DNA of 64,000 bases from an uncultured Spirochaetota bacterium (GTDB taxonomy: Bacteria > Spirochaetota > Brevinematia > Brevinematales > JAOACQ01): contig CAWAOD010000005.1 in assembly GCA_963783575.1 (NCBI GenBank), positions 160,001-224,000 of the forward strand. Direction: 5' to 3'. The notes beneath the pieces are model-generated. The model did not search any database. It worked only from the letters and a program-made list of their open reading frames with translations, and was not told the origin of the DNA. The position numbers and the translations under genes are program-made. Positions within the stretch are counted from its first letter, which is position 1; each line of letters starts with the position of its first letter. Shown in pieces: positions 39,340 through 62,662 of the stretch.

Positions 39340-39525
39340 GACGTTTAAACGTCCAAATCAGACGGTTTTCCGTCATCTTTATCCCCAAAAAAGCGAATGA
39401 TTCTAAACAAAAAAACATTTATCTTGGGAATTTATTAATTTCTCAATTTCATATAATGCAAAGAATTATCCTCATCTGGCATATTCAAATCACAATTCCG
39501 AATCTTATCCTGGCATACGATTTGC
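39340..39525 (+). promoter_or_regulatory. Cassette 1: paired palindromes GACGTTTAAACGTC / GACGGTTTTCCGTC plus sigma54 promoter TGGCATACGATTTGC (39511-39525)
   Basis: Canonical -24/-12 spacing. The block recurs six times. Confidence 0.8.
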
Positions 39526-39928
39526 TTATAATCACTATAAATATGAGTTGAAAAAAATGGATCGCTGTAAAAATAGAAAATAGCTTTTTTATAGTTAATT
39601 TGATTGAAGCATACTTCTATTGAAAAGAAATAATTCACAGGAAGATTAGAAGCGATGCCCTAAGTATGTCGAAGGGTCGGGTATTGGAAGTAGGCAAAAA
39701 TTATATTTTAATTTCAATCCAAATCCAAAACATATTGATAAGTAGCCACTAATTACACTAAAACGAATAAATAATAATTAGTGTAAATTCGTTCAATTAG
39801 CGGCTAAGATTCTTTATCACTTCCCGTCTTCCTGTGAAAAAAATTTATACCGACTGAAATAGTATTAAGTTATAAACTTATAATAACAAAACTTTTGACA
39901 TTACAATAATCTATAAAAGGAGGATTTT

Positions 39929-40972
39929 ATGAAGAAAGTGTTGGCAATAATCATTGAAATAATGATTATTACGTGTGTTTTCGTTTTATCAGGCTGCAAT
40001 TTATCGCCTGGACCGGGCAATGATAAAAAATCCGGATCCAGTGCCAATGAGCCTATTTCCACAAGCAGCGGGCCAAAAAGGGCAGTTACGGCCAGTCAGG
40101 TACAACAGCTGGCGTATCCTTATGCTGGCTACCCTTTCATAAGCGGGGCGCAGGGCGAAATCTGCAAAGATCCGAACAATCCGCTTAAGCCAACATATGA
40201 TATCGGCTACATGCAAGACGGAGCTGTTTGCAATTATCCGAATGTAAGCTTTCCTTACGGAATGGTAAATTTTACTGCCAGTGTAGCAAGCGGGGGAAGC
40301 GGCGGAACCATCGAAGTATGGGGAGGATATCCCTCTACAAAGTTGTTCCAAATCAGTGTTAATAATACCGGTGGATGGCAGAATTGGACTACTGTAAGTT
40401 GCCATATTCCCAATTACGCAGGCCTGAATCTGGGTAACACAGGTTTTACTCTTATATTTCACGGTGTATCAGGCAACATGTTCAACATTGACTCGGTTAC
40501 ATTTCAAGGACTAGCTACTCCTACTTCCGGTGGAGCAATTTTCAACAAAATGTCCATCCAACAGTTTAAAAACAAAATGATGGCTATGCCAGATTATCAA
40601 AAGGGTACGCAAGCCCAAATAACGGCTCTGGCTAGTGGCGCATACGGAATATGGGCTTATCCATTTGGAGGACATTATCAGCTAGTTAGCCCTTATACTT
40701 ATAACAACCAAGGGGTCACAACTTTAGTATTAGGAGTAGATGCCGGTTCAACGGACGATGGCGCCAGGATTATTCAATGGACTATTGATAATCCTGAGAC
40801 CGCTAATCAGTTATGGGATTTTGTGCCTGTCGGCGACGGAAGCTACAAAATTCAAAACGTTGGCAGCGGTAAGTTCATAGGCGTTGATGCCTGTATAATT
40901 GCCGATGGCAGACCGTTAATTCAATGGCATGATGATGGATTCTCTGATAAGCAGTGGATATTCATGGATTGA
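39929..40972 (+). CDS. Lipoprotein with CBM6-like and ricin-B (CBM13-like) domains and no catalytic domain
   Basis: LSGC lipobox. VASGGSGGTIEV..NTGGWQNW (CBM6). QW/QLW ricin repeats. Confidence 0.8.
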   Translation: MKKVLAIIIEIMIITCVFVLSGCNLSPGPGNDKKSGSSANEPISTSSGPKRAVTASQVQQLAYPYAGYPFISGAQGEICKDPNNPLKPTYDIGYMQDGAVCNYPNVSFPYGMVNFTASVASGGSGGTIEVWGGYPSTKLFQISVNNTGGWQNWTTVSCHIPNYAGLNLGNTGFTLIFHGVSGNMFNIDSVTFQGLATPTSGGAIFNKMSIQQFKNKMMAMPDYQKGTQAQITALASGAYGIWAYPFGGHYQLVSPYTYNNQGVTTLVLGVDAGSTDDGARIIQWTIDNPETANQLWDFVPVGDGSYKIQNVGSGKFIGVDACIIADGRPLIQWHDDGFSDKQWIFMD

Positions 40973-41010
40973 TCTTAATCTTGACTGTTAAAAAGATCCA
41001 TAAATAAACA

Positions 41011-41051
41011 GGGGGCAAGGAAGCGTTTTAGGCAATCCTTGCCCCTCTCTT
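41011..41051 (+). terminator. Conserved terminator-like hairpin GGGGCAAGGA...TCCTTGCCCC (also at about 43824-43858, 57475-57508 and 62068-62100)
   Basis: GC-rich inverted repeat just after each lectin-domain gene, followed by a pyrimidine-rich tract. Confidence 0.7.
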
Positions 41052-41198
41052 TGATCTCATTTGTTACCTATCAACTTTTTCAGGAATTAAAATATATGGA
41101 ACAGCGATTTTGAAAAATATTACCAAACCTTATGCACACTGTTTCATAATCATCCATGATAATAATCACCCTGCCCGGTTTTATAAATATTATGGCAA

Positions 41199-41381
41199 GA
41201 CGTTTAAACGTCCAAATCAGACGGTTTTCCGTCTTATTTATCTTCAAAAAAGCAAACGATACTATACAAAAAAATTTTGCCATGGAATTTTTTAATTTCT
41301 CATTTTCAGATAATGCAAGGAATTATCCTCATTCGGCATATTCAAATCACAATTCCTGACCCATCCTGGCATACGGTTTGC
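41199..41381 (+). promoter_or_regulatory. Cassette 2: paired GAC-N8-GTC palindromes plus sigma54 promoter TGGCATACGGTTTGC (41367-41381)
   Basis: Near copy of cassette 1. Confidence 0.8.
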
Positions 41382-41821: not shown

Positions 41822-43783
41822 ATGAAGCCAGTGTTGGCAATAATCATTGAAATGATGATTATTTCGTGTATTTTCGTTTTATCAGGCTGCAGTTTGACAC
41901 CTCAAGAGAAAAATGCATCCAAATCCGCATCAGCAGGGCCCGTAAATAACGCACCGTTATTACACACAGGCCCGAACTTTAGTGTCGGTACCCCATCCAC
42001 TTACGGAACACCTTTATTTACGTACCGTAATTCTTCAGACCCCCATTCATACGTCTTCAATGGAGTGCTTTACCTTTACACTTCGTGCGATTTAAACGGG
42101 CAGGGTGCGCCGACATATCCGATGAATACCACATATTGTTATTCGACTTCCGATTTGATTAACTGGACTGATAATGGTGCAATGGTAACAGAAAGTCAAC
42201 TTCCATGGGCTTCGCAGGTCAATGGGATGTGGGCGCCTTGCGCTGCTTACAAAAACGGAACATATTATCTTTATGTACCTGAGAAAATAAATCAGGATGG
42301 ATCCCAAATGAGAATCGGTGTATGCACTGGCAGTACTCCAACGGGCACATTTGCACCTCCGCAGAATTATATGACAATACCAACCGTAGCGAACGCCCCC
42401 CAGGGGGATTTTAATTCCGACCCCTATGTGTTTATTGATACCGGCGGCACTCCATATATGCTATATTGCGACGGGAATAACCCGCAAGGGAGGGTATGCA
42501 TAGTACAGATGGACAACATGACAACAATAACTAAAACGCCTGTTACAATAGATTCAAGAATAACTGGCGGTAACCCGCCTCAGAATCAATTTGAGGAAGG
42601 CGCAAGATTAATTTTAACTAACGGCACATACTACCTGTACTATCCGGCTTCCGTTAACTCCGTCAACGAATACCTGGTTTATGCTACATCCACTACCGGC
42701 CCGATGGGGCCATATACTTACAAGGGCCAATTTATGAAGGCAAACCAAGGTGAATGGACTATTCAGGGCGATATTGTTAATTATGATAATAAATGGGTAC
42801 TCTTTTATCACGATACCCCGATGACACCTCAATACGCAAGAATGGTGTGCGCGGAATATTTTAACTTTAATAGCGATTATTCTATTCCTCAGATCAACAG
42901 GACTGTGCAGGGGCTTACGGTAGACCCGACCAATCAGATACAGGCTGCTACTTACTTCAGTCAAGCCGGAGGTCTGCAGACCGAAGCAACCAGTGATCCG
43001 GGCAGCACTCTGGATGTAGGATTTATTCAAAACGGAAGTTATTGTTATTATAGCGGAATTAACTTTATGGCTAATAATGGAACGGGACTCACAGGGTTCA
43101 CTGCACGCGTAGCGAGCGCGACAAGCGGCGGATACATTAAGATATATCAGTACGACCCTTCTAGTGGTATTTTGCTGGGAACCGTATCGGTTCCAGGAAC
43201 CGGGGGCTGGCAGAACTGGGTTACAGTATCATGCTCCTTCGTTAATCCTTCTCCGGGACCGAGAATGAATCAAATTTGTCTTGTGTTTACCGGTCAATCG
43301 GGTTACCTGTTCAACATAGACCGGTTTCAATTTTCGTACAACGGAGGCGTAACTCCCGGTGTTTATACAATTAAGAACAGGAATAGCGGCACCGTGATGG
43401 ATATGCCCCAACCGTATACCAAGGGTACGCAAGCTGATATCCACTCTTATCTTGGTTATAACAATCGGCAGTGGATCATTCAAAATTCAGGGCCCTATAT
43501 TACCATACAGAATAATTACACCAAATTTGTATTAGGAGTAGATGCTGATTCAACGGGGCAGGGCGCTCGCATTATTCAATGGGATGCTAACAGTAAACCT
43601 TCTCAGCAATGGACTCTGGTGCCTGTAACTGGCCAAGGCGTCTCCGGATATTTCTACATTCAAAATGTTAACAGCGGTATGAATATAGGCTGTGATGGCG
43701 GGAAAATTGCCGATGGTACACCGTTAATCCAATGGCCGTATGATGGATCCTTGAATCAGCAGTGGTCATTCCAGGCTCCGTAA
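41822..43783 (+). CDS. GH43 glycoside hydrolase-CBM6-ricin-B lipoprotein
   Basis: SDPH, WAP, SDPYVFID and FEEG GH43 motifs. TGGWQNW CBM6 motif. Ricin QxW repeats. LSGC lipobox. Confidence 0.88.
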   Translation: MKPVLAIIIEMMIISCIFVLSGCSLTPQEKNASKSASAGPVNNAPLLHTGPNFSVGTPSTYGTPLFTYRNSSDPHSYVFNGVLYLYTSCDLNGQGAPTYPMNTTYCYSTSDLINWTDNGAMVTESQLPWASQVNGMWAPCAAYKNGTYYLYVPEKINQDGSQMRIGVCTGSTPTGTFAPPQNYMTIPTVANAPQGDFNSDPYVFIDTGGTPYMLYCDGNNPQGRVCIVQMDNMTTITKTPVTIDSRITGGNPPQNQFEEGARLILTNGTYYLYYPASVNSVNEYLVYATSTTGPMGPYTYKGQFMKANQGEWTIQGDIVNYDNKWVLFYHDTPMTPQYARMVCAEYFNFNSDYSIPQINRTVQGLTVDPTNQIQAATYFSQAGGLQTEATSDPGSTLDVGFIQNGSYCYYSGINFMANNGTGLTGFTARVASATSGGYIKIYQYDPSSGILLGTVSVPGTGGWQNWVTVSCSFVNPSPGPRMNQICLVFTGQSGYLFNIDRFQFSYNGGVTPGVYTIKNRNSGTVMDMPQPYTKGTQADIHSYLGYNNRQWIIQNSGPYITIQNNYTKFVLGVDADSTGQGARIIQWDANSKPSQQWTLVPVTGQGVSGYFYIQNVNSGMNIGCDGGKIADGTPLIQWPYDGSLNQQWSFQAP

Positions 43784-43945
43784 TTTTATACGGACTATTA
43801 TTAAAAAAGATTAATAAATAAAACGGGGCAAGGAAGGGTTTTACATCTTCCTTGCCCCTTCCTTTGATCTCATCTGTTTTATCACGTTTTTACCCGCCTA
43901 GGTATTACATGAAAAAAATCTATATGGAACAAAATTACGTCAGGA

Positions 43946-44129
43946 GACATTTAAACGTCCAAATCAGACGGTTTTTCGTCTTCTTTATCATCAAAAAAGC
44001 GAATGATCCTATACAAAAACATTTACTTTGGGAATCTTTTAATTTCTCATCTTCATATAATATAAGGAATTATCCTCACCCGGCATATTCAAATCACAAT
44101 TCCGGACTCCATCCTGGCATACGATTTGC
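43946..44129 (+). promoter_or_regulatory. Cassette 3: paired GAC-N8-GTC palindromes plus sigma54 promoter TGGCATACGATTTGC (44115-44129)
   Basis: Near copy of cassettes 1 and 2. Confidence 0.8.
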
Positions 44130-44147
44130 TTATAAGCATATTGGTGA

Positions 44148-44317: not shown

Positions 44318-44344
44318 CTGCAGAATATCAACAAGGGGGATAAA

Positions 44345-44699
44345 ATGAAAGAAAAAAAATGGATCGCTGTAAAAATAGAAAAGAGCTTTTTTATTGTACA
44401 TATAGTCACAAAAAGCGGGGTGCACAAAATCCAGAAAATATTCCTTGAAAAAAGACGGGATCGGTGAATTTATAAATGAACTGGATTTTGATACGGTTAT
44501 TAATATAGAAAAAAGCGATAACGCACAGAAACTTATAGAAAATATCAAAGGGCTGATAAAAGACTGTTTCGTGTTGAATAAAGTGGAATTGCTTGAATTC
44601 AACGGTTATTTTGATGAAAATAATATGGACTCGATATACGATATTGAAAGTATAACAGCTGATAATATTAAAGGGGAGAATCAGGAAAGTTTACGTTAA
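44345..44699 (+). CDS. Small protein, paralog of 62693-63046, with a +1 frameshift in an A-run near 44435
   Basis: 355 nt versus 354 nt for the intact copy. Same MKEKKWIAVKIEKSFFIVHIVTKSG start. Confidence 0.7.
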
Positions 44700-44719
44700 A
44701 TAAACATAAGGAGGAATAT

Positions 44720-46924
44720 ATGTTTAAGAAATTAACCCTTTGCGGGTTACTTGGAGCCCTGGTACTTGGCTTCATGATGTCCGGATGTTCTCTAAAGCCG
44801 GGTAGTGATACTGCCGCGAAAAAGCCGGCTGATAATTTAGGGAATGGGGCACTGGTTGAAAAGTCTATAGGCGGTTATGTATACGGCCAGCCTTATATCT
44901 CAACAGCGGCGCGTGATTATGATTTTACGGCCGATTATAACAAGTGGAAATCCACATATGTGACAAGTTCCGGCGCCAATGGAAATCTAAGGGTACAGAG
45001 AGACCTTTCTTCAGCTTATGATACCGTTTCCGAAGGCATAGGCTACGGAATGCTGCTTGCCGTTTATTTTGGCGACCAGGCGACATTTGACAAATTATAT
45101 AATTATTGTCAGGCGCATTTCATATCATCATCCATTCCGCTTATGCACTGGAAAGTGGACAGCAGCGGCAACAATGTAAGTGAATTCGCCGATTATAAAA
45201 TTGATCCTACAGGCATAGTTGTAACACTCTCTTATGGCATACCAGGATATCTGTACTCCGCAACCGCAAATGTTCCTCATGGTATTGTTTATGGTAATTT
45301 GAAAGACGGATCAATCTGGATATTACCGGAACCATCAACTACTTATGTTACAGCTGCGCAAAATTATCTTGATAACAGTTCGGATTATTACCCGATGGAC
45401 AAATTTACCAGAGGTTTAAGCAGCGCGGCCGATGCCGATCAGGACATTGCGGCCGCCTTATGTTTTGCGTGCAAAGTATGGCCTAATAATTCATTATTTT
45501 ATGGTAATCAAGCAAAAGCTATGATTACTGCCATTAAACAAAATGATTTCGGAAATCCGGCCGGAGGTAAAAACAATACTTATGGTAAATATGGCTTTAT
45601 AATGAACGGCAGTGGATGGGGAGGAAATACGGGATGGAATCCGAGTTATTTTGCCCCGGCGTATTATATTAATGTATTTGCCATGATGTGTCCCGATCAG
45701 TATGATTTTTGGACCAATGCATATAACACAATGTACGCTGAAATGAAAAAAATTTCTGATTATGTTTATTCTACCGGGAAATCGGCCGTTTTTTATCCTG
45801 ACTGGTGTAATACATCGTCCGGAAAACCTGTCCAGGCGACAACAATGAGCGACAGATATTATTACAATAATGGAACCGCCGGAACCGGTCCGTCTATGAT
45901 ATATCCCCAGAGCGCGATGTGGACAACGGGAACAAAAAAGGGAGATTATACTAAATCATGTATGAGTTTTAACCAGTACTATGATGGTATAAGAGTGCCG
46001 TGGAGAATAGCTTTAGATGTCGCCTGGGATATGACGGGCGCTTCTCAAACTGGTAATACCTGGGCACAAGGTTGCTTACTCAGTTCATATAAGGCGTATA
46101 AACCCATATTATCAACAATTGTGGATGGTTATCAAATTACCGGAGATCCATGGAATTGGGATTATAGGGACGGGTTCAATAATTCAGTGGGCGGAAAAGC
46201 GCATTCAACGACGTTTATAGCCATGGGCGCATGCGCTTTAATAGGAGTGCCTGGTGTCGATATGTCAAGCCATTGGAATGAGGTTGTGAATGCGAATGAT
46301 TATGGCAACGCCGACTATAATTATTATGGAAACACATTAAGACTGCTTTCCATGCTGTTTTTGTCCGGCAAGTTCGAGAATCTTTACAATTCCCCGCCTC
46401 CTTCGGGAACTATAGTGAGAATCAGAAATTACTGGAAGGGAACCTATATGAATATCGAACATACAATACCCCATATTGTAGAATGCAGCAGTATCAGTTC
46501 AGATTGGACCAGTGCAAAATGGATCATTCAAAGAACCAGCGACGGTTATTATACATTTGCAATGTGTTGGTCACCGCCGGCACCGAATAATTATAAAATT
46601 TATCTTCATGAGGAAGATAATAATGCGGTAACTGCCGAATGGGATAAACCAACCACCGGTAATAATATTGGTGTTGTTCCTAACACGGGCTGGTGGAGTT
46701 CGCAATGGATACTGGAACAGACGGATGCAGCGGGTTATTATAGATTTAAGAACCGCTGGACAGGCACTTATCTTTACATTGAACATCAATATCCTACTGG
46801 TAAAACGGGTAATAATGGTGATAATTCAGTAGAAGTAGAAAATGGGAATGCTTGTTCTTCCCAACCGCTCTATGGCAATTCTTGCTGGTTTAGCTCCAGA
46901 TGGGGATTTGAAATAGTCCAGTAA
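44720..46924 (+). CDS. GH8 glycoside hydrolase lipoprotein with a C-terminal beta-trefoil/ricin-like domain
   Basis: TVSEGIGYGML, SAADADQDIA, NPSYFAPA and YYDGIRVPWR GH8 motifs. MSGC lipobox. C-terminal repeats RIRNYWKGTY / RFKNRWTGTY. Confidence 0.88.
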   Translation: MFKKLTLCGLLGALVLGFMMSGCSLKPGSDTAAKKPADNLGNGALVEKSIGGYVYGQPYISTAARDYDFTADYNKWKSTYVTSSGANGNLRVQRDLSSAYDTVSEGIGYGMLLAVYFGDQATFDKLYNYCQAHFISSSIPLMHWKVDSSGNNVSEFADYKIDPTGIVVTLSYGIPGYLYSATANVPHGIVYGNLKDGSIWILPEPSTTYVTAAQNYLDNSSDYYPMDKFTRGLSSAADADQDIAAALCFACKVWPNNSLFYGNQAKAMITAIKQNDFGNPAGGKNNTYGKYGFIMNGSGWGGNTGWNPSYFAPAYYINVFAMMCPDQYDFWTNAYNTMYAEMKKISDYVYSTGKSAVFYPDWCNTSSGKPVQATTMSDRYYYNNGTAGTGPSMIYPQSAMWTTGTKKGDYTKSCMSFNQYYDGIRVPWRIALDVAWDMTGASQTGNTWAQGCLLSSYKAYKPILSTIVDGYQITGDPWNWDYRDGFNNSVGGKAHSTTFIAMGACALIGVPGVDMSSHWNEVVNANDYGNADYNYYGNTLRLLSMLFLSGKFENLYNSPPPSGTIVRIRNYWKGTYMNIEHTIPHIVECSSISSDWTSAKWIIQRTSDGYYTFAMCWSPPAPNNYKIYLHEEDNNAVTAEWDKPTTGNNIGVVPNTGWWSSQWILEQTDAAGYYRFKNRWTGTYLYIEHQYPTGKTGNNGDNSVEVENGNACSSQPLYGNSCWFSSRWGFEIVQ

Positions 46925-46943: not shown

Positions 46944-46979
46944 AACCCTGATGATGTTTTATTCATCAGGGTTTTTTTT
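46944..46979 (+). terminator. Rho-independent terminator
   Basis: AACCCTGATGA..TCATCAGGGTT followed by a T-run. Confidence 0.8.
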
Positions 46980-47112
46980 GGGGTGGCGTTTTATACAGGT
47001 TTTTTTTGTATTTTTATTGTAATTTTTCCTGCCTACGATTATAATTCTTCCTATCAGTTATCAATTTGCCTGTTCTAAATATTAATTAATTGGAAGCCAT
47101 CAAGGAGGATTT

Positions 47113-47889: not shown

Positions 47890-48033
47890 CATCGGAATAC
47901 TTAAAATCCTAAAGTCCGATTTACCAAGAATGGTAGCAAGGATAAGATTACCTCATTATTGAAAGAGAGAGACAAAAAGAAGCCGTTTTAAGCGGACTAC
48001 CCTGAATGATAAGATAAAATTTCTTAATATAAA

Positions 48034-48374
48034 ATGAACAAATCCATATCACTCCCAAAACCAGAAACATTGTGCAGGATATTCTCAAAGACTATTTTCC
48101 TGCCTTCGAGGCAGCTTATGATACATATTATTCCGCTCATTACGGAAAATTCAACATGGAGCGGATTTCCGAATCAGTAGAAAAATTTATCGATTGCGGC
48201 GACTACAGCAAAGGCATTGCGCGAATCCAGTGCACAAACAAGGACTGTGATCACGAATACTTCCTGCCATTTTGGTTTCGACAGGCTCACCACAAGTACT
48301 GCAAGCAATGGTATCTCTGTCCATCTTGTCACCAGAAGCGACTTACCGGGAAAGGTTTGTTGACAGGAAAATAA
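48034..48374 (+). pseudogene. IS91-type transposase zinc-binding domain fragment
   Basis: KFIDCGD..G.ARIQC..C.HEYF.PF..CK..LCPSC..KR, then truncated. Frameshift near the start. Confidence 0.7.
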
Positions 48375-48839
48375 AGTCGATTTTTTGCAGTTTTATTTTC
48401 CCCAATGTACAATATCTCGCTGTAGGAATTATAAATTCTTCTATCAGTCATTTTTTATTTTTTGCGCTATTCTACAAATAAAATGCAGAAATTTACTATA
48501 CTGATTAAGTCATTTAAACCTAAAATCTATACACATTCTTTTATAAAAGAGTTAATAACAGAGAAGAAGAACTATATTAAGTAACATAAGATTATAAATA
48601 AATATTATTATAATACTCAATCTATAAAATTCTACCACGGATTTAATGGCCGGAGGGTCAAAAGTTTAATAATATAAATATTATTAAATATTTTCAGTTT
48701 TCTTTGTCCCAATGTACAATATTTCGTGTTAGAAATTATAATTCTTCCTATCAGTTATCAATTTGCCTCTTCTAAAATATCAATTTAATAGAAATTAATA
48801 ATTATTGGATATAAAAATTAATGCTTTCAAGGAGGATTT

Positions 48840-49616: not shown

Positions 49617-49690
49617 CATCGGAATACTTAAAATCCTAAAGTCCGATTTACCAAGAATGGTAGCAATATATAGATCAAAGGAAAAATAAA

Positions 49691-52600: not shown

Positions 52601-55099
52601 AAAGGGGATTATAAGAAGAGCAATTATTATTTTTTAGAAAGTTATGACAAATTCAAAAAAATGGGCGATTTATGGGAAGTTAAAATGGTTTTACAGGGGA
52701 TGGATTTGAATTATTTATTATTATCTGATCATACTAAAAGCCTTGAATTAATCGATCAATACCTGAAAATAAGTGAACAGTTAAATGATAATTATGGAAT
52801 ATGCAGCGCCATGAGCGACTACGCTTTAGTCAATTATCAAAGAGGGAATTACGATCAGGCGATGAAATACGCCGAAAAGTCATTGATCATATCAGAAGAA
52901 AATAAAATATTATTAATCGATTGTCTCGTAAATATTTATTTGGGGATTATATTCAATGAATTTGGTGATTATAAAAAAAGCATTGAATACCTTTCAAGCG
53001 CATATAAGTTATATGAGAATAATAACCTGCTGGAATATTACACGGTTTTTATGTATTCATATCTTGCGGAAGCATATTTAATCGAATTTATCAATTTGTA
53101 TCCTCATAAAATCAAAGGCAGGAAAAAAGAGCTAAATAAGATAAAAAAAGCCTGTGCAAAGGCCCTATTAAAAACCAGGCCATGGAAAGCCCATTTCAGT
53201 GAAGCGTTGCGGATTAGTGCCAGGTATTACAGCTTTATCGGTAAAACAAAAAAAGCCGAGCATTTGCTTTTACAGAGTATAAGCATAAACTCCAAATTGG
53301 GAAAACCATTTGATCTTGCATTGGGGTATTATGAGTATGGTAAGTTTTTAAAAGAAACGGGAAGGATTGAGGAAGCAAAAAAGCGTCTTGAGTCCTCCTT
53401 TATTATATTGAAAGAGTTAGACTCTAAAGTCTACTTGAAGAGAGTATCGGATATGCTCGGAATAAATGAAAAAGAGGAGAAGGATGATATGGATTCTATT
53501 CAAAAGTTTAAGTACAGGGAAAGATTATCATCCATAATAAAAGTCAGCCAGACAATCAGTTCGATACTCAACCTGGACCTTCTGCTGAAAAATATTGTCA
53601 CACTGGCCATGGAAATTACCGGTGCCCAGAGGGGTTATCTTTTCATAAAAGACGAGGTTTCAGGGGAACTTGTCCTGAAAGTTAAGAAATTCATAAACGA
53701 GGGGAAAAGCGATTCCAGGCCGTCTGTTTTATATTCCGGAAATATCGTTAAAGCAGTTTTTAAAACCGGGGAGGCTGTTCTCTTAAACGACGCAGAACAG
53801 GATACCGATTACTCAAAATATGATAGTGTAGTCCTGCACAGGCTGAAATCCATTCTCTGTGTTCCCATTAAACATCAAAACACGATCCTGGGAGCATGCT
53901 ATTTTGATAACCCGCTTTCCTCATCAGTTTTTTCCGCTGAAGATCAAGAAATCCTGGAAGCCATAATGACGCAGGCCGCCATATCCATAGAAAACGCCAG
54001 ACTTTATGAGATAACGAAAATAATGAAAGAGAAAGCCGAGAATGAAGTGGAAAAACTAACCATTCATATTTTACAGAAGCAGGAAAAACAGCTTGACGAA
54101 AAAAGCTCCCTGGTCTATCAGAGCCCCCAGATGCAGGAGGTTGTCGGTAAGGTCAGCCAGGCCGTAAAAATATCCAGACCGATTTTGATCACTGGCGAAA
54201 CAGGCACGGGGAAGGAGCTTATAGCCAAACTTATTCATAACTCGAGTAACCATCAAGACGAGCCTTTTATAGCTATAAACTGTGCCGCTATACCTGAAGC
54301 CCTCTGGGAGGCGGAAATGTTCGGGCATATGAAGGGGGCCTTTACCGATGCAAAAACCGGCCGGGAAGGCAGCATCGCCACCGCCGGGCAGGGCACACTG
54401 TTTTTTGACGAGATAGGGAACATGCCCCTGGACATACAATCCAAGCTTCTACGGCTGCTCCAGGATAATCAATACAGGCCGATAGGCAGCAATAGAGCGC
54501 TGAATTCAAAATGCCGTTTTCTTTTTGCAACAAACGGGGAAGTGGAAGAAATGATTAAAAAGGGGACATTCAGGGAAGATCTTTACTACAGGATCAATGT
54601 CTTTAATATTCATATACCGCCGTTAAGGGAAAGGAAGGAAGATATCCCCGTCTTGCTGGATTATTTTATTGAAAAATTTGTGCGGGAATTCAGCCTGCCG
54701 GAAAACCTGGAAGTAGAAAAGAAAGCAATGGATAAGATTATTAATTACAGTTGGCCCGGAAATGTCAGGGAAATGGAAAACTTTGTCATCCGCGCGCTGG
54801 CGCTTTTATCCGAATCGGAGGGAAACAGGAGCGTTTTGAAATTAATGCACCTGCCTTCCAATATCGATACCTTTATTGAGCCGGTTAAAACATTACAAGA
54901 AGAGAAAGAAAAGATTGTAAAAGAGGAAATCGTCGTAGATGGTAATTATGAAGATATACTCAATCAGCATTCAAAGAAAATGATCGAATGGGCCCTTAAT
55001 AAATCAAAGGGCAATATAAAGAAAGCGGCCGAAATACTGGGTATAAAGCGAACGACTCTGAATTATAAAGTCAAAGAACTTAAAATAGATATAGAGTAA
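49691..55099 (+). CDS. Ser/Thr kinase-NTPase (AAA_16/STAND-like)-TPR-GAF-sigma54 activator-HTH fusion, copy 2, intact 1802 aa
   Basis: HRDLKPGN, DFG and GT..YMPPE (kinase). GEAGKGKT, FLDDLQWAD and KGNPFF (NTPase). TPR-like helices. GAF (SILCVPI). GETGTGKE, FGHMKGAFTDA, FFDEIG, FREDLYYR and WPGNVRE (sigma54 AAA+). AAEILGIKRTTL (HTH). Confidence 0.93.
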   Translation: MINNRYEIVRQIDEGGISKVYLARDIETKGEVVVRTLKKEIISSRIEDIIRFRNEAAILSRLDHPNIVKLYETAEFEGQNYIVMEYIPGESLYKIIKSGKKFLEREIIEMTIQICSSLDYIHPMSIIHRDLKPGNIMVHTDMKGELHIKTIDFGLAFLKEYSSIKGIEDIAGTFCYMPPEQFGVISGGVDERSDLYSLGIILYQLLTGVLPFEGETPGSIIHRQIAMIPETPSHYNKSISETLDKIVLKLLEKEPDRRYQSAKGLLFDLEKYKKGERNFHPGMHDKHIKLTFKTGLISREEEFSAIKELYDKARKGEGSVCFISGEAGKGKTRLAEELRSHVYTEGGVFIDGKCFAGKSKTPYGPFKDALNIYLKIYQGYQEEKKQDIKNKLNEMTGDLCGLILQLNPSFSVIFNKRPELVRLEIDREKKRFLMVVGQFFLNLSSVDNKMVIFLDDLQWADEGSMDLLTEISGELSKYPLFIIGTYRNDEISSDHKLISYKEKAAINQYPYHEIYLEEFSRVVVKKLVISLLYAKVENIEEISDVIHKKSKGNPFFAIEILKQFVSENILYYKENSWVIDAGKLRGVEIASTIVDIVMKRISLLSDEETKVLSYAAVIGRRFDAGILFRLLDYEAPEIIRIVDRAIKLQLLEEDIQEKGKILFAHDRIKEAFYKKCGEGERKLLHRRIGKTIEEMNRGDKEKVIFDLAYHYIEGEEEEKILEYAYPAGIKAKENYAYEEAIRCFSFINRITEGKGEEGKELWINTNRNIIEIYLVIGKNDEAIEISGKILPFIEDKLNKANICKQISAAYFKKGDWKNCEEYGRKGLSLLGEKLPVENIAIIFRIINELLKHILHQLFPKLFIKNKGDRDIEKYKLIVWFYITLNWMYILNDNVKMIGNQLRMLNISESRIGKSRELGMSMGAYAGVCMAIPLFNRSIEFHEKALQLRKEMNDQWGIAQSLQLLGYCYHWKGDYKKSNYYFLESYDKFKKMGDLWEVKMVLQGMDLNYLLLSDHTKSLELIDQYLKISEQLNDNYGICSAMSDYALVNYQRGNYDQAMKYAEKSLIISEENKILLIDCLVNIYLGIIFNEFGDYKKSIEYLSSAYKLYENNNLLEYYTVFMYSYLAEAYLIEFINLYPHKIKGRKKELNKIKKACAKALLKTRPWKAHFSEALRISARYYSFIGKTKKAEHLLLQSISINSKLGKPFDLALGYYEYGKFLKETGRIEEAKKRLESSFIILKELDSKVYLKRVSDMLGINEKEEKDDMDSIQKFKYRERLSSIIKVSQTISSILNLDLLLKNIVTLAMEITGAQRGYLFIKDEVSGELVLKVKKFINEGKSDSRPSVLYSGNIVKAVFKTGEAVLLNDAEQDTDYSKYDSVVLHRLKSILCVPIKHQNTILGACYFDNPLSSSVFSAEDQEILEAIMTQAAISIENARLYEITKIMKEKAENEVEKLTIHILQKQEKQLDEKSSLVYQSPQMQEVVGKVSQAVKISRPILITGETGTGKELIAKLIHNSSNHQDEPFIAINCAAIPEALWEAEMFGHMKGAFTDAKTGREGSIATAGQGTLFFDEIGNMPLDIQSKLLRLLQDNQYRPIGSNRALNSKCRFLFATNGEVEEMIKKGTFREDLYYRINVFNIHIPPLRERKEDIPVLLDYFIEKFVREFSLPENLEVEKKAMDKIINYSWPGNVREMENFVIRALALLSESEGNRSVLKLMHLPSNIDTFIEPVKTLQEEKEKIVKEEIVVDGNYEDILNQHSKKMIEWALNKSKGNIKKAAEILGIKRTTLNYKVKELKIDIE

Positions 55100-55145
55100 A
55101 CCTTTCAAAAAAACCTTAATCACCCGGTGATATTATTTTGTCATA

Positions 55146-55328
55146 GACAAAATTCAGTCACTTTTAAGACAAATTTTTGTCTCTTTTCGTCTTATTTGAA
55201 ACGGCCGCATAATTGTAAATAAATCTTTATTTAACATATTTAATCCATTAAATTATATATAGCAAGGAATTATCTCATTCTGCATATTCAAATCACAATT
55301 CCGGACCCCATCCTGGCATATAGTTTGC
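55146..55328 (+). promoter_or_regulatory. Cassette 4: paired palindromes GACAAAATTCAGTC / GACAAATTTTTGTC plus sigma54 promoter TGGCATATAGTTTGC (55314-55328)
   Basis: Same promoter-proximal block as cassettes 1-3 but a different upstream palindrome variant. Confidence 0.8.
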
Positions 55329-55477: not shown

Positions 55478-57455
55478 ATGAAGAAAGTGTTGGCAATAAT
55501 CATTGAATTGATGATTATTATGTGTATTTTCGTTTTATCAGGATGCAATTTATCGCCTGGGCCGGGAAAAGAAGCATCCAAATCCGTATCGCCGGTATCG
55601 CCCGCAGGTCCGAAGTTTAGCATCGGTACCCAGCAGGTTTCAGGGACAGTTACCAATATCGGCAGGCCTTTATTTTCGTTCCGTAGTTCCTCGGATCCAC
55701 ATGCCCGCGTATTCAACGGACAGGTTTACATTTACTGTTCACAAGATATGTACGGCAACAGCGGCGGCGGTATTTATCCGATGAACACTACTTACTGCTA
55801 TTCATCAGCCGATCTGGTAAACTGGAAGGATAACGGCGCGGTAATGACGGAAAACCAACTTCCCTGGGCAGCCCATGGATCCAACGAGCTTTGGGCGCCA
55901 TGCTGTGTCCAGAACCCGAACAATGGGCAATATTACCTTTATGAACCTGATGAACCTAATAACGGTGCCAACTCCTATGACAAGAGGATCGGGGTAAGTG
56001 TAGCATCCAGCCCGACGGGTCCTTTTACCCCATTGCAGAATTATATAAGCATTCCAAGAGTTGCGAACGCCCCCCAGGGAGACTTCAATTGCGATCCTTT
56101 CGTGTTTATTGACACGGCAAACGGCAACACACCGTATCTTTTATATTGCGACGGAAATAACCCAAATGGTAGGGACTGTATCGTACAGATGAACAGCGAC
56201 TTTGAGACAGTAAGCAAACAGCCAGTAACGGTAGATTCATTGATGGCTAACGGAGTGCCGGCAAATCAGTTCGAGGAAGGCCCGAGGCTTTTCTACATCA
56301 ATAGCAAGTACTACCTGATTATGCCTGTTTCTTACGGCGGATCTGAATATCTGGCTTACGCCATATCAACCCAAGGGCCGATGGGTCCTTATACTTTCAA
56401 GGGTAATTTTATGTCGCAGAACCAGGCGGAATGGACTATCCAGGGAGACATCGTTCAGTTTGACAACAAGAACGTACTGTTTTATCATGATGTTCAGCAG
56501 CCCCAGATAAAAGGTTTTTACAGACAGGTGTGCGGGGAATATTTTTATTTTAACAGCGACGGGTTACTTCCCCAGATCTCAAGAACCCAGCAGGGGCTCA
56601 CTATTGACACCACCAATATAGTACAGGCAGCTAGCTACTTCACAGCCTCCAGCGGCGTACAGACAGAATCAACCGGTGATCCGGGCAGCGGTCTGGATGT
56701 TGGATGGATTCAAAATGGAAGCTGGATTGAATACAGCGGGATGAACTTTGCCAATCTTAACATTACCGGTTTTACCATTAGCGTAGCGAGTGCGACAAGC
56801 GGCGGTAATATTTATATAATGGCGCCGAGCACAGGCGGTCTCGGCTGGGTTGAAATCGGACAGGTCAGCGTTCCTTCCACTGGAGGCTGGCAGAACTGGA
56901 CGACGGTAACATGCCCCATTAATTACAATTCACTGCCTGGACCTCAAACCATTGAACTTCAATTTTCCGGCGGTTCGGGTTACCTGTTAAACATAGACCA
57001 GTTCCAGTTTTCCGGTAACGGAGGAATCGCCCCGGGTACTTACAAAATTATTAACAGGAATAGCGGCACAGCTATGGACATGACCGGGTTTTCAACGAGT
57101 GCAGGCACCCAGGCCCAGATATGGGCTTATGGCGGAGGCGCCAACCAGAAGTGGACCCTTCAGCCCTCTGGGCCCTGACTATTACATCATAAATGTCAAC
57201 AGCGGTCTGGTACTGGGAGTAACTTCCGCTTCATTGAATGAAGGCACTTCCATCGTTCAATGGCAGCAAATCAGCGGCCATCCCGATCAACTGTGGATCC
57301 TGCAGCCTGTCTATAATTATTACTATATTAAAAATTTGAACAGCGGACAGGTAATAGGATGTTGTAACGGAACAACTACCAACGGCACACCGCTGGTCCA
57401 GTGGCCAGCCATTTCAGGAGATCTGGACCAGGAGTGGTCATTCCAGAATCCGTAG
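55478..57455 (+). CDS. GH43-CBM6-ricin-B lipoprotein, frameshifted near 57170
   Basis: Paralog of 41822-43783 (SDPH, WAP, CDPFVFID, FEEG). The C-terminal ricin part is in ORF 57099-57455. GGAGG RBS before ATG 55478. Confidence 0.85.
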
Positions 57456-57573
57456 ACTAATCCTTAATAAAACTGGGCGAGGAAGCGTTTTACGCTTTCC
57501 TTGCCCCTTTCTTTGTTCTCATCTGTTTTTTTTTGTTTTTACCCGCCCAGGTAGTTCCTGAACGAAAATTTGT

Positions 57574-57837
57574 TTTGAAATTAATGCGCCTGCCTTCCAA
57601 TATTAATACCTTTATTAAACCGGTTAAAATATTACAGGAAGAGAAAAAAAGATTGTAAAAGAGGAAATCGTTGTAGATGGTAATTATGAAGATATACTCA
57701 ATCAGCATTCAAAGAAAATGATCGAATGGGCCCTTAATAAATCAAAGGGCAATATAAAGAAAACGGCCGAAATACTGGGTATAAAGCGAACGACTATGAA
57801 TTATAAAGTCAAAGAACTTAAAATAGATATAGAGTAA
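57574..57837 (+). pseudogene. Duplicated 3' tail (HTH-coding) of the 1802-aa activator gene
   Basis: Near-identical to about 54834-55099, with indels. Confidence 0.85.
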
Positions 57838-57882
57838 ACTTTTCAAAAAACCTTAATCACCCGGTGATATTATTTTGTCATA

Positions 57883-58065
57883 GACAAAATTCAGTCACTT
57901 TTAAGACAAATTTTTGTCTCTTTTCGTCTTATTTGAAACGGCCGTATAATTATAAATAAATCTTTATTTAACATATTTAATCCATTAAATTATATATAGC
58001 AAGGAATTATCTCATTCTGCATATTCAAATCACAATTCCGGACCCCATCCTGGCATATAGTTTGC
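57883..58065 (+). promoter_or_regulatory. Cassette 5: paired GAC-N8-GTC palindromes plus sigma54 promoter (58051-58065)
   Basis: Near-identical to cassette 4. Confidence 0.8.
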
Positions 58066-58206
58066 ATATAAGCATATAAATAAGAGTGGAAAAAAAGGAT
58101 CACTGTAAAAATTAGGAAAGAGCTTTTATGGTTAATCCAATTGAAGCTTACTTCTATTTGAAAAGAAATAATTCACAGGAAGACTAGAAGCGATGCCCTG
58201 AGTATA

Positions 58207-59825
58207 CAGACTGTGTGAAAACTCAGTAAAATTTTATAGTAAAATCGATTAATTATACAAAAACTCCATTTTTTGATATATTTTTCAAGCTAAAAAAATC
58301 TTAGTTTAAAAAATCTATCCGAATACGATAAACGATGGTTTATTAGCATCAAACCAGAGTCATAAGTCTCTTTATTCCCAATATATTCAATACTTTTATT
58401 AAATTATGAATGAATCCTGCCAAACTGGATTCCGTCAGAACGCCATCCTTTCCCTTCATTAAAAAATAACTGTAACCCATATTCCTTTTTATCGATCCAA
58501 ATGGATGTTCACATATCTCTTTCCTTTTCTCTATGATCTTTTTCCCGGCTTCAGAACGAATTTTCCTCTTGAAGTTCTCAATTTCTTCTTTTCTAACTGG
58601 TACTTTGATACTTCGTCCTTCCACGCTTTCAGTACACTTATTTCTTACTTCACATTGGCTGCATAAGCCGCACTTGTACCTGACTATCTCTTTTCCTCCA
58701 TTGACCTTCTCTACTTTTTTCCCATTTCTCACTAATGGGTTTCCCTCCGGACAATAATAAACATTTTGTCCCGGATCATATTTGAATTTATCAACCTGGT
58801 ATTCTTCAGCAGGTACTCCTTTATTATCTTCTTTGCCTCGAATCCTTGCCTTATGTCCGTCATCCGGATTCGGCATATATACGTTATGTCCCTTATCTAT
58901 ACATTCCAGTATCTGCGGTTCGCTGTAATAACCGGCATCCGATACTTTGACCGTTTCAGTCTCTACCTTAAGCTCGTCCTTTATTTCTTCTACTCGGTCA
59001 CACATTCCTGCCATCTGCAGATTATATGCAATGTCGGATTTCCCTTTATCATTCATAAACCGGCTTTCCGGGTCATTTGAATAATATTTCTCCATTTCAG
59101 GATTTCCCTCAAAAATCTTTTTAATAGCCTCAACTTTATCCTTTTTTGTTTTCATTTTCTTTAAACGTTCCGCTATCTTTCCGGAAAGAAATTCAAATTC
59201 ATTCTTTTCTTCCTTATCGTTCTTATCCATCTCATTCAAATATTCTTCGATCTTTTGATCTATTCTATGTATGATTTCTTCTATGTTTTTCCTATGATAA
59301 ACATTGTTATTGTGGTTTTGCGCACTGATCTTGGTTCCATCAATTCCAACAACGTCAAATGATAAAAGCCCGGCTTTATGACATATCTTCAAAAATTCTC
59401 TGAATATCGACTGTATTCCCTTCTTATTATCTTTCCTGAAGTCGGCAATCGTCTTGAAATCCGGCGCTAGTCGTCCAGTCAGCCACATCAACTCTGTGTT
59501 TCTTCGGCACTCTCTCTCTAATTTCCTGCTTGTCCTGATTTTATTCAAATATCCGTAAATATAGATTTTTAAAAGTATTTCGGATTTATATGAACTTCTG
59601 CCGGTTGATGCTTCTTTTACTTTAAAACCAACTCCTTTCATATTTAGCTTATCAACAAAAATATCTATAAACCTTACCGGATCTTCTTCTCCTAACAGAT
59701 CTTCCAGTGTTTCATTGAACAGAACTATCTGATCCCTTGATTCTCCCTCAATATGCTTCATCTTTTACTCCGATTATTTTTGTTCTAATAATTATAGCAT
59801 ATTTACTGAGTTTTCACACAGTCTG
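58207..59825 (-). mobile_element. IS1182-family insertion sequence
   Basis: 24-bp inverted repeats CAGACTGTGTGAAAACTCAGTAAA / TTTACTGAGTTTTCACACAGTCTG. Apparent 3-bp ATA duplication. Confidence 0.9.
58349..59761 (-). CDS. IS1182 transposase, possibly with an internal in-frame deletion after AYNLQ
   Basis: SRKLERE, PDFKTIADFR, IDGTK, SDAGY, Zn-ribbon Cys residues and EHPFG.IK. Confidence 0.88.
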   Translation of the reverse strand: MKHIEGESRDQIVLFNETLEDLLGEEDPVRFIDIFVDKLNMKGVGFKVKEASTGRSSYKSEILLKIYIYGYLNKIRTSRKLERECRRNTELMWLTGRLAPDFKTIADFRKDNKKGIQSIFREFLKICHKAGLLSFDVVGIDGTKISAQNHNNNVYHRKNIEEIIHRIDQKIEEYLNEMDKNDKEEKNEFEFLSGKIAERLKKMKTKKDKVEAIKKIFEGNPEMEKYYSNDPESRFMNDKGKSDIAYNLQMAGMCDRVEEIKDELKVETETVKVSDAGYYSEPQILECIDKGHNVYMPNPDDGHKARIRGKEDNKGVPAEEYQVDKFKYDPGQNVYYCPEGNPLVRNGKKVEKVNGGKEIVRYKCGLCSQCEVRNKCTESVEGRSIKVPVRKEEIENFKRKIRSEAGKKIIEKRKEICEHPFGSIKRNMGYSYFLMKGKDGVLTESSLAGFIHNLIKVLNILGIKRLMTLV

Positions 59826-60096
59826 ATATCGAAGGGCCGGGAAGTCAGGTATTGGAAGTAGGCGAAAATTATATTTTAATTTCAATCCAAATCCAATACA
59901 TATTGATAAGTAGCCAATAATTTCACTAAAACGAATAAATAATAATTAGTGTAAATTCGTGCAATTAACGGCTAAGATTCTTCATCACTTCCCGTCTTCC
60001 TGTGAAAAAAATTTATGCTGACGGAAATAGTATTAAGTTATCAACTTTTACTAACAAAACTTTTGACAATATGTTAATCCAAAAAAGGAGGATTTT

Positions 60097-62047
60097 ATGA
60101 AGCCAGTGTTGGCAATAATCATTGAAATGATGATTATTACGTATATTCTCGTTTTATCAGGCTGCAGTTTATCGCCTGGACCGGGTAAAGAAGCATCCAA
60201 ATCCGCATCAGTAGGGCCTGTAAATAACGCGCCGGAATCACACACAGGTACGGAGTTTAACATCGGTACCCCAGCTACTTACGGGACACCTTTATTTACT
60301 ACGCGTAATTCTTCAGACCCCCATTCCAGTATCTTCAATGGTGTGCTTTACCTTTACACTTCGAGCGATATGGGCATTACAGGCTCATATCCAATGAGTA
60401 CGACATATTGTTATTCAACTTCCGATTTGATCAACTGGACAGATAATGGCGCAATGATCAATGAAAACTCGCTTCCATGGGCTTATCATAACACCAACCA
60501 GTTATGGGCCCCAGACTGCGTTTACGCAAACGGTCAATATTACCTTTATACGCCAGACGACGCTGCTGATGCAACCGGGAATGATATAGGCAAGAGGATC
60601 GGAGTATCCATTTCAACCAGCCCTACGGGCCCGTTTATTCCTCAGAATGATTATATCCATATCCCTACAGTAGCGGGCGCCCCCCAGGGAGATTTTGCAA
60701 GCGACCCCGATGTTTTTATTGATACCAACGGTACTCCATATATGCTATATTGCGATGGAAATGCCCCGAAAGGGAGGGTCTGCATTATAAAATTAGACCC
60801 AAGCATGACAAAGACAGCGGCAAACGCAACGCCTGTACTAATAGAATCATTAGGCAACGGCACTTTTCCTAATCAGTTCGAGGAAGGCGCGAGGTTAAGC
60901 CTTATTAATGGCATATACTACCTGTACTATCCGGTTTCCATTGGGAGTCGAGAATTCATTGTTTATGCTATGGCAAGAAATGTGATGGGCCCTTATACTT
61001 ACCATGACAAATTTATGTCGGCAAACCAAACTGAATGGACTGTTCAGGGCGATATAGCTAATTATGATAATAAATGGATACTCTTTTATCATGATACCCC
61101 GATGGTATCCCAGGGATATAAAAGAATGGTGTGCGGAGAATATTTTACCTTTAACTCCGATGGAACTATTCCTACAATCAGCAGGACAGTAGAAGGGCTT
61201 ACGGTAAACCCGAACAATCAGATACAGGCGGCTACTTACTTCAGTCAATCCGGGGGTCTGCAGACCGAACCGACCAGCGATCCGGGAAGCAGTCTGGATG
61301 TCAGGATGGATTCGAAATGGAAGTTATTGCTATTATAGCGGAATAAACTTTAACAATGCTAACTACATAGAGTTTTTTGCGAGCGTAGCGAGTCCAAGTA
61401 ACGGCGGAACCATCTCATTATATCAGTGGGACCCTAGCAGAGGTATTTTGCTGGGAACATGCGCTGTTCCAAACACCGGAGGCTATCGGAAATGGGTTAC
61501 AGTATCATGCAACATAGCCAGTCCATCTCCGGGACCTTTCATGAAACAACTTTGTCTTAAGTTTACCGGCGGACCGGGTTACATGTTCAACATAGACCGG
61601 TTTACATTTACAACTGACAGTTTTCCCGGTATTTATAAAATTATCAACAGGAATAGCGGCACAGCGATAGATATGCCGGGATCTTCAAAGGGTACTCAGG
61701 CCCAGATATGGACTTGGGGGCAAACAGCCAATCAAAGATGGACCGTTCAATTTTCCGGAAGCTATTTTTACATGATGAACAATTATAGTAGTTTGGTATT
61801 AGGCGTATTAAGTGCTTCACTGAACCCGGGCGCAAAGATTGTTCAATGGTCTCATAACACTTCCAGTGATCAGCAATGGGAGCTGGTGCCAACCGGTGAC
61901 GGATATTACTATATTCAAGACGTTAACAGCGGATGCGTTATAGACTGTCAAGGCGGGGCAACTGCCGATGGCACCCAATTAATCCAATGGCCGAATGATG
62001 GAGCCAATAGTCAACAGTGGTCATTACAGGATGCCGCCAATAATTGA
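60097..62047 (+). CDS. GH43-CBM6-ricin-B lipoprotein, frameshifted near 61303
   Basis: Paralog of 41822-43783, split over ORFs 60097-61338 and 61298-62047. Confidence 0.85.
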
Positions 62048-62164
62048 AAAAAGTTTCATTAATAAAACGGGTAAGGAAGCGTTTACGCTTTCCTTGCCCC
62101 TTCCATTGATCTTATCTGTTTTATTTCGTTTTTACCCGCCTAAGAAGTTCCTGAACGAAAATTT

Positions 62165-62433
62165 GTTTTGAAATTGATGCACCTGCCTTCCAAATATCTG
62201 TATCTTTATTAAGCCGGTTAAAATATTACAGGAAGAGAAAGAAAAGATTGTAAAAGAGGAATTGTCGTTGATGGTAAATATGAAGATATACTTAATCAGC
62301 ATTCAAAGAGAAAATGATCGAATGGACCCTTAATGAATCAAAGGTTAATATAAAGAAAGTAACCGAAATATTGGGTATAAAGCGAACGATCCTGAATTAT
62401 AAAGTCAAAGAACTTAAAATAAATATAAAGTAA
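62165..62433 (+). pseudogene. Second duplicated 3' tail of the activator gene
   Basis: Similar to about 54834-55099 but more diverged than the copy at 57574. Confidence 0.8.
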
Positions 62434-62478
62434 ACCTTTCAAAAAACCTTAATCACCCGGCGGCATTATTTTGTCATA

Positions 62479-62662
62479 GACAAATTTCAGTCACTTTTAA
62501 GACAAAATTTTGTCTATTTTCGTCTTATTTGAAATGGCCGCATAATCGTGAATAAATCTTTATTTAACATATTTAATCCATTAAATTATATATGGCAAGG
62601 AATTATCCTAATCTGTCATATTCAAATCACAATACCGGACCACATCCTGGCATATGGTTTGC
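62479..62662 (+). promoter_or_regulatory. Cassette 6: paired GAC-N8-GTC palindromes plus sigma54 promoter TGGCATATGGTTTGC (62648-62662)
   Basis: Copy of cassettes 4 and 5. Confidence 0.8.

Follow-up and report, generated by a model that had tools for sequence, protein, structure and literature searches.

MalT places a TPR sensor behind a STAND ATPase and has a LuxR-type helix-turn-helix (HTH) output on sigma-70, while STAND proteins of the SWACOS type have an N-terminal Ser/Thr kinase domain. Here we describe a stretch of 64,000 nucleotides (hereafter the window) from an uncultured Spirochaetota bacterium (assembly GCA_963783575.1, contig CAWAOD010000005.1, positions 160,001 to 224,000 of the forward strand), in which two paralogous sigma-54 activators are each followed by three promoter cassettes with tandem upstream palindromes. 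By the general definitions of these groups, the activators share the STAND-TPR order with MalT and the N-terminal kinase with SWACOS proteins. Their output is instead a GAF domain, a sigma-54 AAA+ domain and a Fis-type HTH (HTH_8), whereas MalT and SWACOS proteins end in a LuxR HTH or a histidine kinase; the LuxR-type output of the MalT family is absent. The account that we consider somewhat probable is that the six cassettes derive from two modules, whose palindromes are the predicted targets of the two activators, with a helix Asn reading an A in each half-site and a neighbouring Asp or Tyr giving a partial preference at the fourth base.

The regulons of bacterial enhancer-binding proteins (bEBPs) in Clostridiales (PMC6615313) and Desulfovibrio (PMC4641369) resemble the window in their Fis-type HTHs, their palindromic upstream activating sequences near -24/-12 promoters and their small size. 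In the available parts of these papers, motif similarity follows HTH similarity among the Clostridiales bEBPs (PMC6615313) and is not always in line with the HTH tree in Desulfovibrio (PMC4641369); the same parts state no residue-to-base rule, GAC-N8-GTC class, kinase-STAND sensor or carbohydrate-active enzyme (CAZyme) output. The D. vulgaris paralogs DVU0539 and DVU0946 are sigma-54 activators beside their targets, as in the window, but they share one site (extracts of PMC3333781), whereas in the window base 4 and the spacer set the enhancers of the two paralogs apart. In the E. coli Fis complexes (PMC3711457, PMC4784862), Arg85 lies on the outer G and the centre is A/T-rich, as in the window, and the recognition helices align without gaps. 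Fis reads DNA shape at G-N13-C sites, while the window sites are G-N12-C and appear to be read directly by the residue equivalent to Arg89.

Two further activators have a KRTTL-type helix. In E. coli FhlA (KRTTLLSR) Leu takes the place of the Asn of the window activators, and GTC-first sites with spacings of N6-N9, but no GAC-N8-GTC, are present in its target regions; with this variable spacing they are consistent with the code discussed below and not a test of it. Pseudomonas FleQ also differs from the window activators, these having Asn and GAC-first sites; a FleQ box, GTCaNTAAAtTGAC, has been proposed, and its reliability is doubted in the same paper (PMC6120874, available part). We found neither a residue-level rule nor the wiring of a kinase-STAND sensor to CAZymes in the literature, subscription journals and bioRxiv supplements lying outside the search.

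Six promoter cassettes from two founders

An earlier reading of the window from its letters alone (the sequence-only reading) had listed six TGGCATA-N3-TTTGC promoters, each preceded by two GAC-N8-GTC palindromes, and all of these lie where it placed them (Table 1). The twelve palindromes have the sequences it gave (in type 2, GACAAA(A/T)TTCAGTC and GACAAA(A/T)TTTTGTC), the two members of a pair are 21 bp apart in type 1 and 22 bp apart in type 2, and the first site starts 168-171 bp upstream. Type 1 comprises cassettes 1-3, behind activator 1, and type 2 comprises cassettes 4-6, behind activator 2; the distance from the activator stop to the first palindrome is 96 bp and 47 bp, respectively. 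A genome-wide scan found the tandem pair six times in the 4.9-Mb genome, always inside the window. About 0.12 pairs are expected from the 259 single GAC-N8-GTC sites, and the reversed and complemented genomes gave one each. The genome has an intact rpoN (contig C16, 457-aa frame). Viral contigs gave 0 matches to the promoter-core pattern, and a plasmid search returned generic matches only (<60%). In all six cassettes a conserved 50-bp element (39450-39510 and equivalents) separates enhancer and promoter, and is a possible site for a bending protein.

The cassettes are not independent. Self-comparison gave an identity to cassette 1 of 81-87% for cassettes 2 and 3, and an identity to cassette 4 of 96.8% for cassette 5 and 90.8% for cassette 6 over ~530 bp that include ~270 bp of the activator-2 3' end. 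The six are copies of two founders made by local duplication, which leaves n=2. The enhancer variant tracks the upstream paralog exactly, as had been claimed. Because the cassettes duplicate two founders, this tracking by itself proves little: it is expected from tandem duplication with or without a code. That the variants record duplication history and nothing else was our first reading, which was weakened by the survey of residues and bases outside this genome.

Type 1 and type 2 DNA are 79-88% identical from -61 to +20, whereas from -230 to -62 their identity (0.39-0.55) is at the level of shuffled sequence (0.50 +/- 0.03). The palindrome cores and the distance between them persist between the types where the surrounding enhancer DNA does not, and duplication leaves this unexplained. 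The DNA of the two activators is 94-100% identical over aa 1-860, ~90% over the TPR region, 96-98% over GAF and 60-82% over AAA+ and HTH. Nor does duplication account for this distribution, in which the divergence spans AAA+ domain, HTH and enhancer and leaves a similar sensor and a similar promoter core to either side.

Two alpha/beta-hydrolase copies, 95% identical, lie within 47038-49666. The second abuts activator 2, and the first is followed by a relic of an activator-1-type HTH and by an IS91-type fragment. The hydrolase pair, the relic and the fragment suggest a collapsed third tandem unit.

Domain composition of the activators

Activator 2 consists of a kinase domain (residues 6-260), AAA_16 (296-483), TPRs, GAF (1294-1433), sigma-54 AAA+ (1475-1641) and HTH_8 (1762-1796), and activator 1 has the architecture kinase-STAND-TPR-GAF-AAA+-Fis-type HTH. 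The STAND module is identified by AAA_16 (E 2e-27) and the motifs GEAGKGKT and FLDDLQW, followed by TPR matches. The sigma-54 AAA+ domain matches PF00158 (E 4e-67), contains GETGTGKE, FFDEIG, REDLYYR and WPGNVRE, which cover Walker A and B, the arginine finger region and sensor II, and aligns to NtrC1. PF02954 matches the HTH of both activators, whose register was set on Fis, and rpoN, the -24/-12 promoters and the upstream palindromes complete the sigma-54 context. Among the tolerated sigma-54 contact loops are GAFTDA and GSFTGA (PMC4641369, available part); the loop of activator 2, GAFTDA, is a listed variant, and that of activator 1, GSFTDA, has two changes that are each tolerated, in a combination absent from the available part of the list.

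In the kinase domain HRD and DFG are intact. Activator 2 and 7/7 close relatives have Arg in place of the beta-3 Lys, and Lys is kept in 4/4 scorable distant matches. Since Arg replaces this Lys in 8/8 family members, the domain is unlikely to be a normal active kinase and probably has a scaffold role. A defence-system assignment was rejected, PADLOC matching only generic kinase and AAA+ models. Kinase-STAND-GAF-sigma-54 fusions are widespread, while the close family amounts to six or seven proteins plus those of this genome, and the family proper is present in 3/43 genomes of the class. For the DNA of the five closest proteins (P0001-P0005), a search of the largest class of the phylum gave 0/401 genomes, and a separate two-genome search gave one distant match; contig scans for close relatives returned generic activators only, among 80 and at least 79 matched loci.

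Helix residues and enhancer bases outside the locus

When the helix is aligned gap-free on Fis, the Asn of both window activators matches Arg89, and the Asp or Tyr that follows it matches Lys90. Both activators have this Asn together with a GAC core. Our guess beforehand was that Asn goes with GAC and Ile, Thr or Tyr with GTC. A search for KRTTLNxK in 351 genomes of the acidobacterial phylum gave two matches, both with tandem GAC-N8-GTC at the gene end. A wider search covered 301 genomes of one class, 10 of its matches being unlisted; all listed non-Gln matches, a Gln subsample and the two earlier matches made 113 entries, of which 110 remained after the removal of 3 non-activators. The surveyed activators share the KRTTLxx helix, and sites were scored from -20 to +70 relative to the stop, with +200 to +290 as control window.

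GAC-N8-GTC was present in 25/29 Asn entries and in 8/81 entries with other residues, GCC-N8-GGC in 21/41 Gln entries and 2/69 others, and GTC-N8-GAC in 4/18 Ile, Phe, Val, Thr or Tyr entries and 1/92 others. With the stop codon excluded, the Asn-GAC counts were 16/29 against 4/81, and the control window gave 0/28 for Asn-GAC and 3/41 for Gln-GCC. The Gln-GCC rule is post hoc and was checked in new entries: of six further acidobacterial Gln entries, two had GCC and one of the six also had GAC. From the second survey, 39/85 matches were removed (not KR(T/S)TL activators or without an AAA+ motif). The 39 entries of the deltaproteobacterial phylum had GTC in 4/12 Ile, 2/7 Val and 1/7 Leu cases, GCC in 2/5 Gln cases and GAC in 0/39.

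The surveyed entries are kin, and Fisher values overstate the association. We built a tree on the AAA+ region without the HTH for 76 entries, chosen for having a site or belonging to the window's family (4 short ones were omitted, and the sites of G006 C2 and type 3, being half-sites, are unlabelled in the final tree). For Asn-GAC, 5.9 of 6 independent Asn/non-Asn pairs agree and 0 run opposite (p 0.031-0.063); the corresponding values are 3.9/4 for Gln-GCC and 3.1/4 for hydrophobic residues with GTC. An Ile/GTC entry is nested in the Asn clade, and an Asn/GAC entry is sister to Gln/GCC entries. The reading of base 2 by Asn also fits the structure, because Fis Arg89 can lie 3.4 A from the base beside the conserved G in one complex (PMC4784862, available part). 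The HTH-to-enhancer code that the sequence-only reading had proposed is thereby supported well outside this locus, a rule of one or two residues being seen across three phyla.

At the next position, Asp versus Tyr is the only recognition-helix difference between the two activators at a variable position. Base 4 is G in 11/12 half-sites of type 1 (Asp), and A in 9/12 and G in 0/12 of type 2 (Tyr). Among the surveyed Asn entries, those with Ser have G there in 47/60 half-sites (T in 11/60), those with Ala have C in 8/10 and those with Phe have A in 5/8. Fis Lys90 makes a phosphate contact (PMC3711457, available part). The link between this residue, the seventh of the helix, and base 4 is suggestive only.

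Several observations count against these interpretations. Gln-GCC and hydrophobic-GTC, with four pairs each, are not significant alone. GAC also occurs in Ala (4/7), His (1/2) and Thr (1/2) entries, two Gln entries bear both GAC and GCC sites, Leu entries are mixed, Tyr gave 0/7, and the guess that Thr goes with GTC failed, a Thr entry of the spirochaete phylum (L375) having GAC. The flank is A in the window sites and T in acidobacterial Asn sites (61/78), and the pair spacing is 21-22 in the window and 17-20 at the latter. A full-length relative in genome G006 (Asn-Tyr, KRNSLNYK) has no such cassette visible behind its gene. For base 4, the tree gives 3.4/6 pairs for aromatic-A and 3.2/5 for Ala-C (none opposite, p 0.25 in both cases), and for Ser-G 3.4 same against 1.9 opposite of 9 pairs (p 0.69). 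Among the surveyed entries Asp had no example outside activator 1, and Glu is accompanied by A (7/10 half-sites) instead of G. Activator 1, which is split twice, may also be a dead gene; the assembly is not error-ridden everywhere, because rpoB and rpoC are intact, and three IS (insertion sequence) copies compared showed one indel event.

The acidobacterial FhlA-type activators (L179-L290) often have a first enhancer that overlaps their own TGA stop codon. Several of these genomes hold two or three paralogs with differing helix residues and matching sites. L179 has a second GAC-N8-GTC pair, also a duplicated cassette, ~1 kb downstream of its first.

Proposed mechanism and alternative explanations

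Under the explanation that we prefer, two HTH dimers would bind the two palindromes ~135-170 bp upstream of the promoter, nucleate an AAA+ oligomer and loop to the sigma-54 holoenzyme to open the promoter, switching on separate terminator-bounded units for surface GH43, GH8 and CBM6 lipoproteins. The helix Asn would likely read the A of GAC, and at the fourth base Asp or Tyr would likely favour G or A only in part. With 47-96 bp between HTH and enhancer, AAA+, HTH and enhancer would behave as one linked block, which diverged between the paralogs, new targets being gained later by duplication of the enhancer-promoter block. More weakly, the STAND-TPR-GAF part may gate activity on an intracellular ligand in a MalT-like way; the targets and the LacI-type sensors of relatives make an oligosaccharide the most likely guess.

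This predicts cross-talk between the two promoter sets, a preference and not insulation. The sequence-only reading had instead inferred two insulated local regulons, and had overlooked the split of activator 1, the IS that separates cassette 5 from its gene and the third activator type. Under insulation, Asp and Tyr would read base 4 so strongly that each activator would drive its own three promoters only. The base-4 contrast in the window (G in 11/12 against 0/12 half-sites), the aromatic-A and Ala-C pairs that never run opposite, and the divergence of the entire AAA+-HTH-enhancer block between flanks that did not diverge all speak for insulation. Yet Arg, Thr and Asn and the AGAC...GTC cores are common to both types, base 4 is loose outside (T in 11/60 Asn-Ser half-sites), Lys90 of Fis contacts phosphate (PMC3711457, available part), and the paralogs DVU0539 and DVU0946 bind one site (PMC3333781, available part). 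While the sigma-54 promoters with their tandem palindromes and rpoN stand, insulation is not established, Asn with GAC, the determinant that has the best support, being shared and the base-4 link suggestive only, and we judge it decidedly unlikely.

At the other extreme, both activators might bind all six enhancers about equally, so that the variants would merely record which founder was duplicated; activator 1 could then be a decaying copy whose promoters are served by activator 2. The local duplication of two founders, with activator-2 relics in cassettes 5 and 6, is what one would expect here, as are the two 1-bp deletions of activator 1 relative to activator 2 (near 36387 and 38528), the activator-1 relic at 47988 and the non-significant tests at residue 7. 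However, where contig ends overlap within one related activator gene, its two assemblies show 6-8 gaps over 4 kb, so indel errors occur in these repeats. Type 1 is near-perfectly GACG and type 2 GACA in both arms, which requires paired changes, and the Phe and Ala subclades within the Asn-Ser clade move base 4 likewise. We consider this shared specificity unlikely. A very improbable alternative is that the register or the protein is wrong, the true site being a central GTC-N7/8-GAC like those of FleQ or NifA, or the palindromes being bound by another regulator. Other family members do have GTC-first sites, type 2 holds a perfect central GTC-N8-GAC, and TGT-N-ACA is the commonest bEBP motif class in the available parts of PMC6615313 and PMC4641369; but the central site varies between N7 (type 1) and N8 (type 2), while the GAC sites are N8 in 12/12 cases with strong inner symmetry, and Asn entries elsewhere have GAC-N8-GTC in 25/29 cases and GTC-N8-GAC in 1/29. 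We therefore retain graded preference by two activators with a common Asn-GAC core.

Target genes and mobile elements

The targets (Table 1) are predicted lipoproteins that carry GH43, GH8, CBM6 and beta-trefoil domains, and related hairpins lie behind their genes. The nearest solved relatives of the one behind cassette 2 are beta-xylosidases and arabinofuranosidases. Cassette 5 is separated from its original target gene by a 1.6-kb IS, which has many near-identical genomic copies; the window copy is ~70 bp shorter than most, with intact inverted repeats. A phospholipase-B-like predicted lipoprotein (31669-33393, minus strand) is divergent from activator 1. Contigs C7 and C17, with 52% and 49% G+C in a genome of 37%, are possible contamination.

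In cassettes 3 and 6 the first transcribed gene is predicted to be a small open reading frame (ORF) derived from an IS110 transposase. The copy behind cassette 6 shares 30% identity with residues 1-97 of an IS110 transposase of the genome (E 2e-13); it has lost the first Asp and lacks the C-terminal Transposase_20 domain, and is not an IS110 transposase. The small ORF also occurs behind a promoter on contig C15 (233018-232746) and in genome G006 (L082, 9501-9776). It is open (92-117 aa) in three diverged copies (41-44% identical) from two genomes, and relic codons of it head cassettes 1, 2 and 5. It may possibly be a domesticated partner of the activator. A single-sequence fold had low confidence (predicted local distance difference test, pLDDT, 45) and was left unused.

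Table 1. Features of the locus and type-3 cassettes elsewhere in the genome (window positions unless a contig is named)
Feature	Position	Strand	Remarks
Activator 1	33832..39244	+	three ORFs: 33832-36393, 36411-38582, 38573-39244; helix KRTTLNDK, loop GSFTDA
Cassette 1, type 1 founder	39340..39525	+	GACG-type palindromes 39340, 39361; -24/-12 promoter 39511
Predicted lipoprotein, CBM6 + ricin-type beta-trefoil	39929..40972	+	signal peptide with LSGC
Cassette 2, type 1 copy	41199..41381	+	promoter 41367
Predicted lipoprotein, GH43-CBM6-beta-trefoil	41822..43783	+	
Terminator-like hairpin	43825..43858	+	related copies ~41003-41065, 57466-57527 behind other target genes
Cassette 3, type 1 copy	43946..44129	+	promoter 44115; duplicated block begins 10 bp 5' of first palindrome
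Small IS110-derived ORF	44345..44699	+	frameshifted copy
Predicted lipoprotein, GH8 + C-terminal beta-trefoil-like part	44720..46924	+	hairpin 46944-46973
Activator-1-type 3'-end relic (HTH codons + stop)	47988..48039	+	behind first alpha/beta-hydrolase copy
Activator 2	49691..55099	+	intact, 1802 aa; helix KRTTLNYK, loop GAFTDA
Cassette 4, type 2 founder	55146..55328	+	GACA-type palindromes 55146, 55168; promoter 55314
Predicted lipoprotein, GH43-CBM6-beta-trefoil	55478..57455	+	frameshift near 57100-57178 splits gene
Activator-2 3'-end relic + cassette 5	57572..58065	+	palindromes 57883, 57905; promoter 58051
IS, DUF772 + DDE_Tnp_1_6 transposase	58207..59825	-	terminal inverted repeats; within cassette 5 leader
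Predicted lipoprotein, GH43-CBM6-beta-trefoil	60097..62047	+	cassette 5's original target; gene split by a frameshift near 61300
Activator-2 3'-end relic + cassette 6	62165..62662	+	palindromes 62479, 62501; promoter 62648
117-aa ORF from IS110 transposase N-terminal domain	62693..63046	+	first catalytic Asp lost
GH43 lipoprotein	63187..64000	+	extends past window end; another GH43 follows
Type-3 cassettes	C14 5531-8364		
Type-3 cassette	C15 233242	-	
Type-3 cassettes	C15 142596, 125234		

A third activator type and sensor exchange in relatives

Two more activators of this genome (3 and 4, contigs C14 and C15) have similar C-terminal parts and the helix KRTTLYYK. Contig ends C5 end/C14 start and C3 start/C15 end overlap by ~4 kb at 99.6% inside these two genes, and the contigs probably join there. 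Five type-3 cassettes have three TGTCAG-first sites with a ~19-bp period and a -24/-12 promoter; two of the five lie 90-110 kb from any activator. A GAC-N9-GTC at the stop of activators 3 and 4 was discarded as their site, being missing from 3/5 cassettes. Among the type-3 targets are GH43 lipoproteins and two glycosyltransferases of family GT2; the remote cassettes precede the GT2 genes in a radical-SAM/glycosyltransferase cluster akin to the operon behind the activator of genome G008.

In relatives from G008 and G006 (L081 and L082), a LacI-type sensor is joined to the same AAA+-HTH module, which is 62% identical. On their sequences, these fusions appear as sensor exchange on a fixed AAA+-HTH output block. 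The G008 activator has Ile (KRTTLIYK) and two GTC-N8-GAC sites.

Significance

To our knowledge, how the dozens of sigma-54 activators of a cell, whose Fis-type helices are nearly identical, avoid cross-talk has been described only for individual motifs. A bolder claim, which we regard as doubtful though possible, is that KRTTL-type helices follow a transferable two-position code, in which Asn, Gln or Ile/Val/Phe at Fis-89 would go with A, C or T at base 2, and Ser or Asp, Ala or an aromatic residue at Fis-90 with G, C or A at base 4. AAA+, HTH and enhancer would then be swapped between sensors (kinase-STAND-TPR-GAF, LacI-type) as a single cassette, since each enhancer adjoins the codons of its own HTH, and three largely orthogonal regulons would be run from NLR-like sensors in this spirochaete.

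The weight of the finding rests mainly on the code and less on the six cassettes. A rule of one or two residues is directly testable by single substitutions and would allow target prediction for unstudied activators. If true, it would also offer orthogonal enhancer-activator pairs, or sigma-54 switches, for synthetic biology. The locus adds to this an unstudied NLR-like sensor (kinase-STAND-TPR-GAF) that would be wired to surface glycan-degrading lipoproteins.

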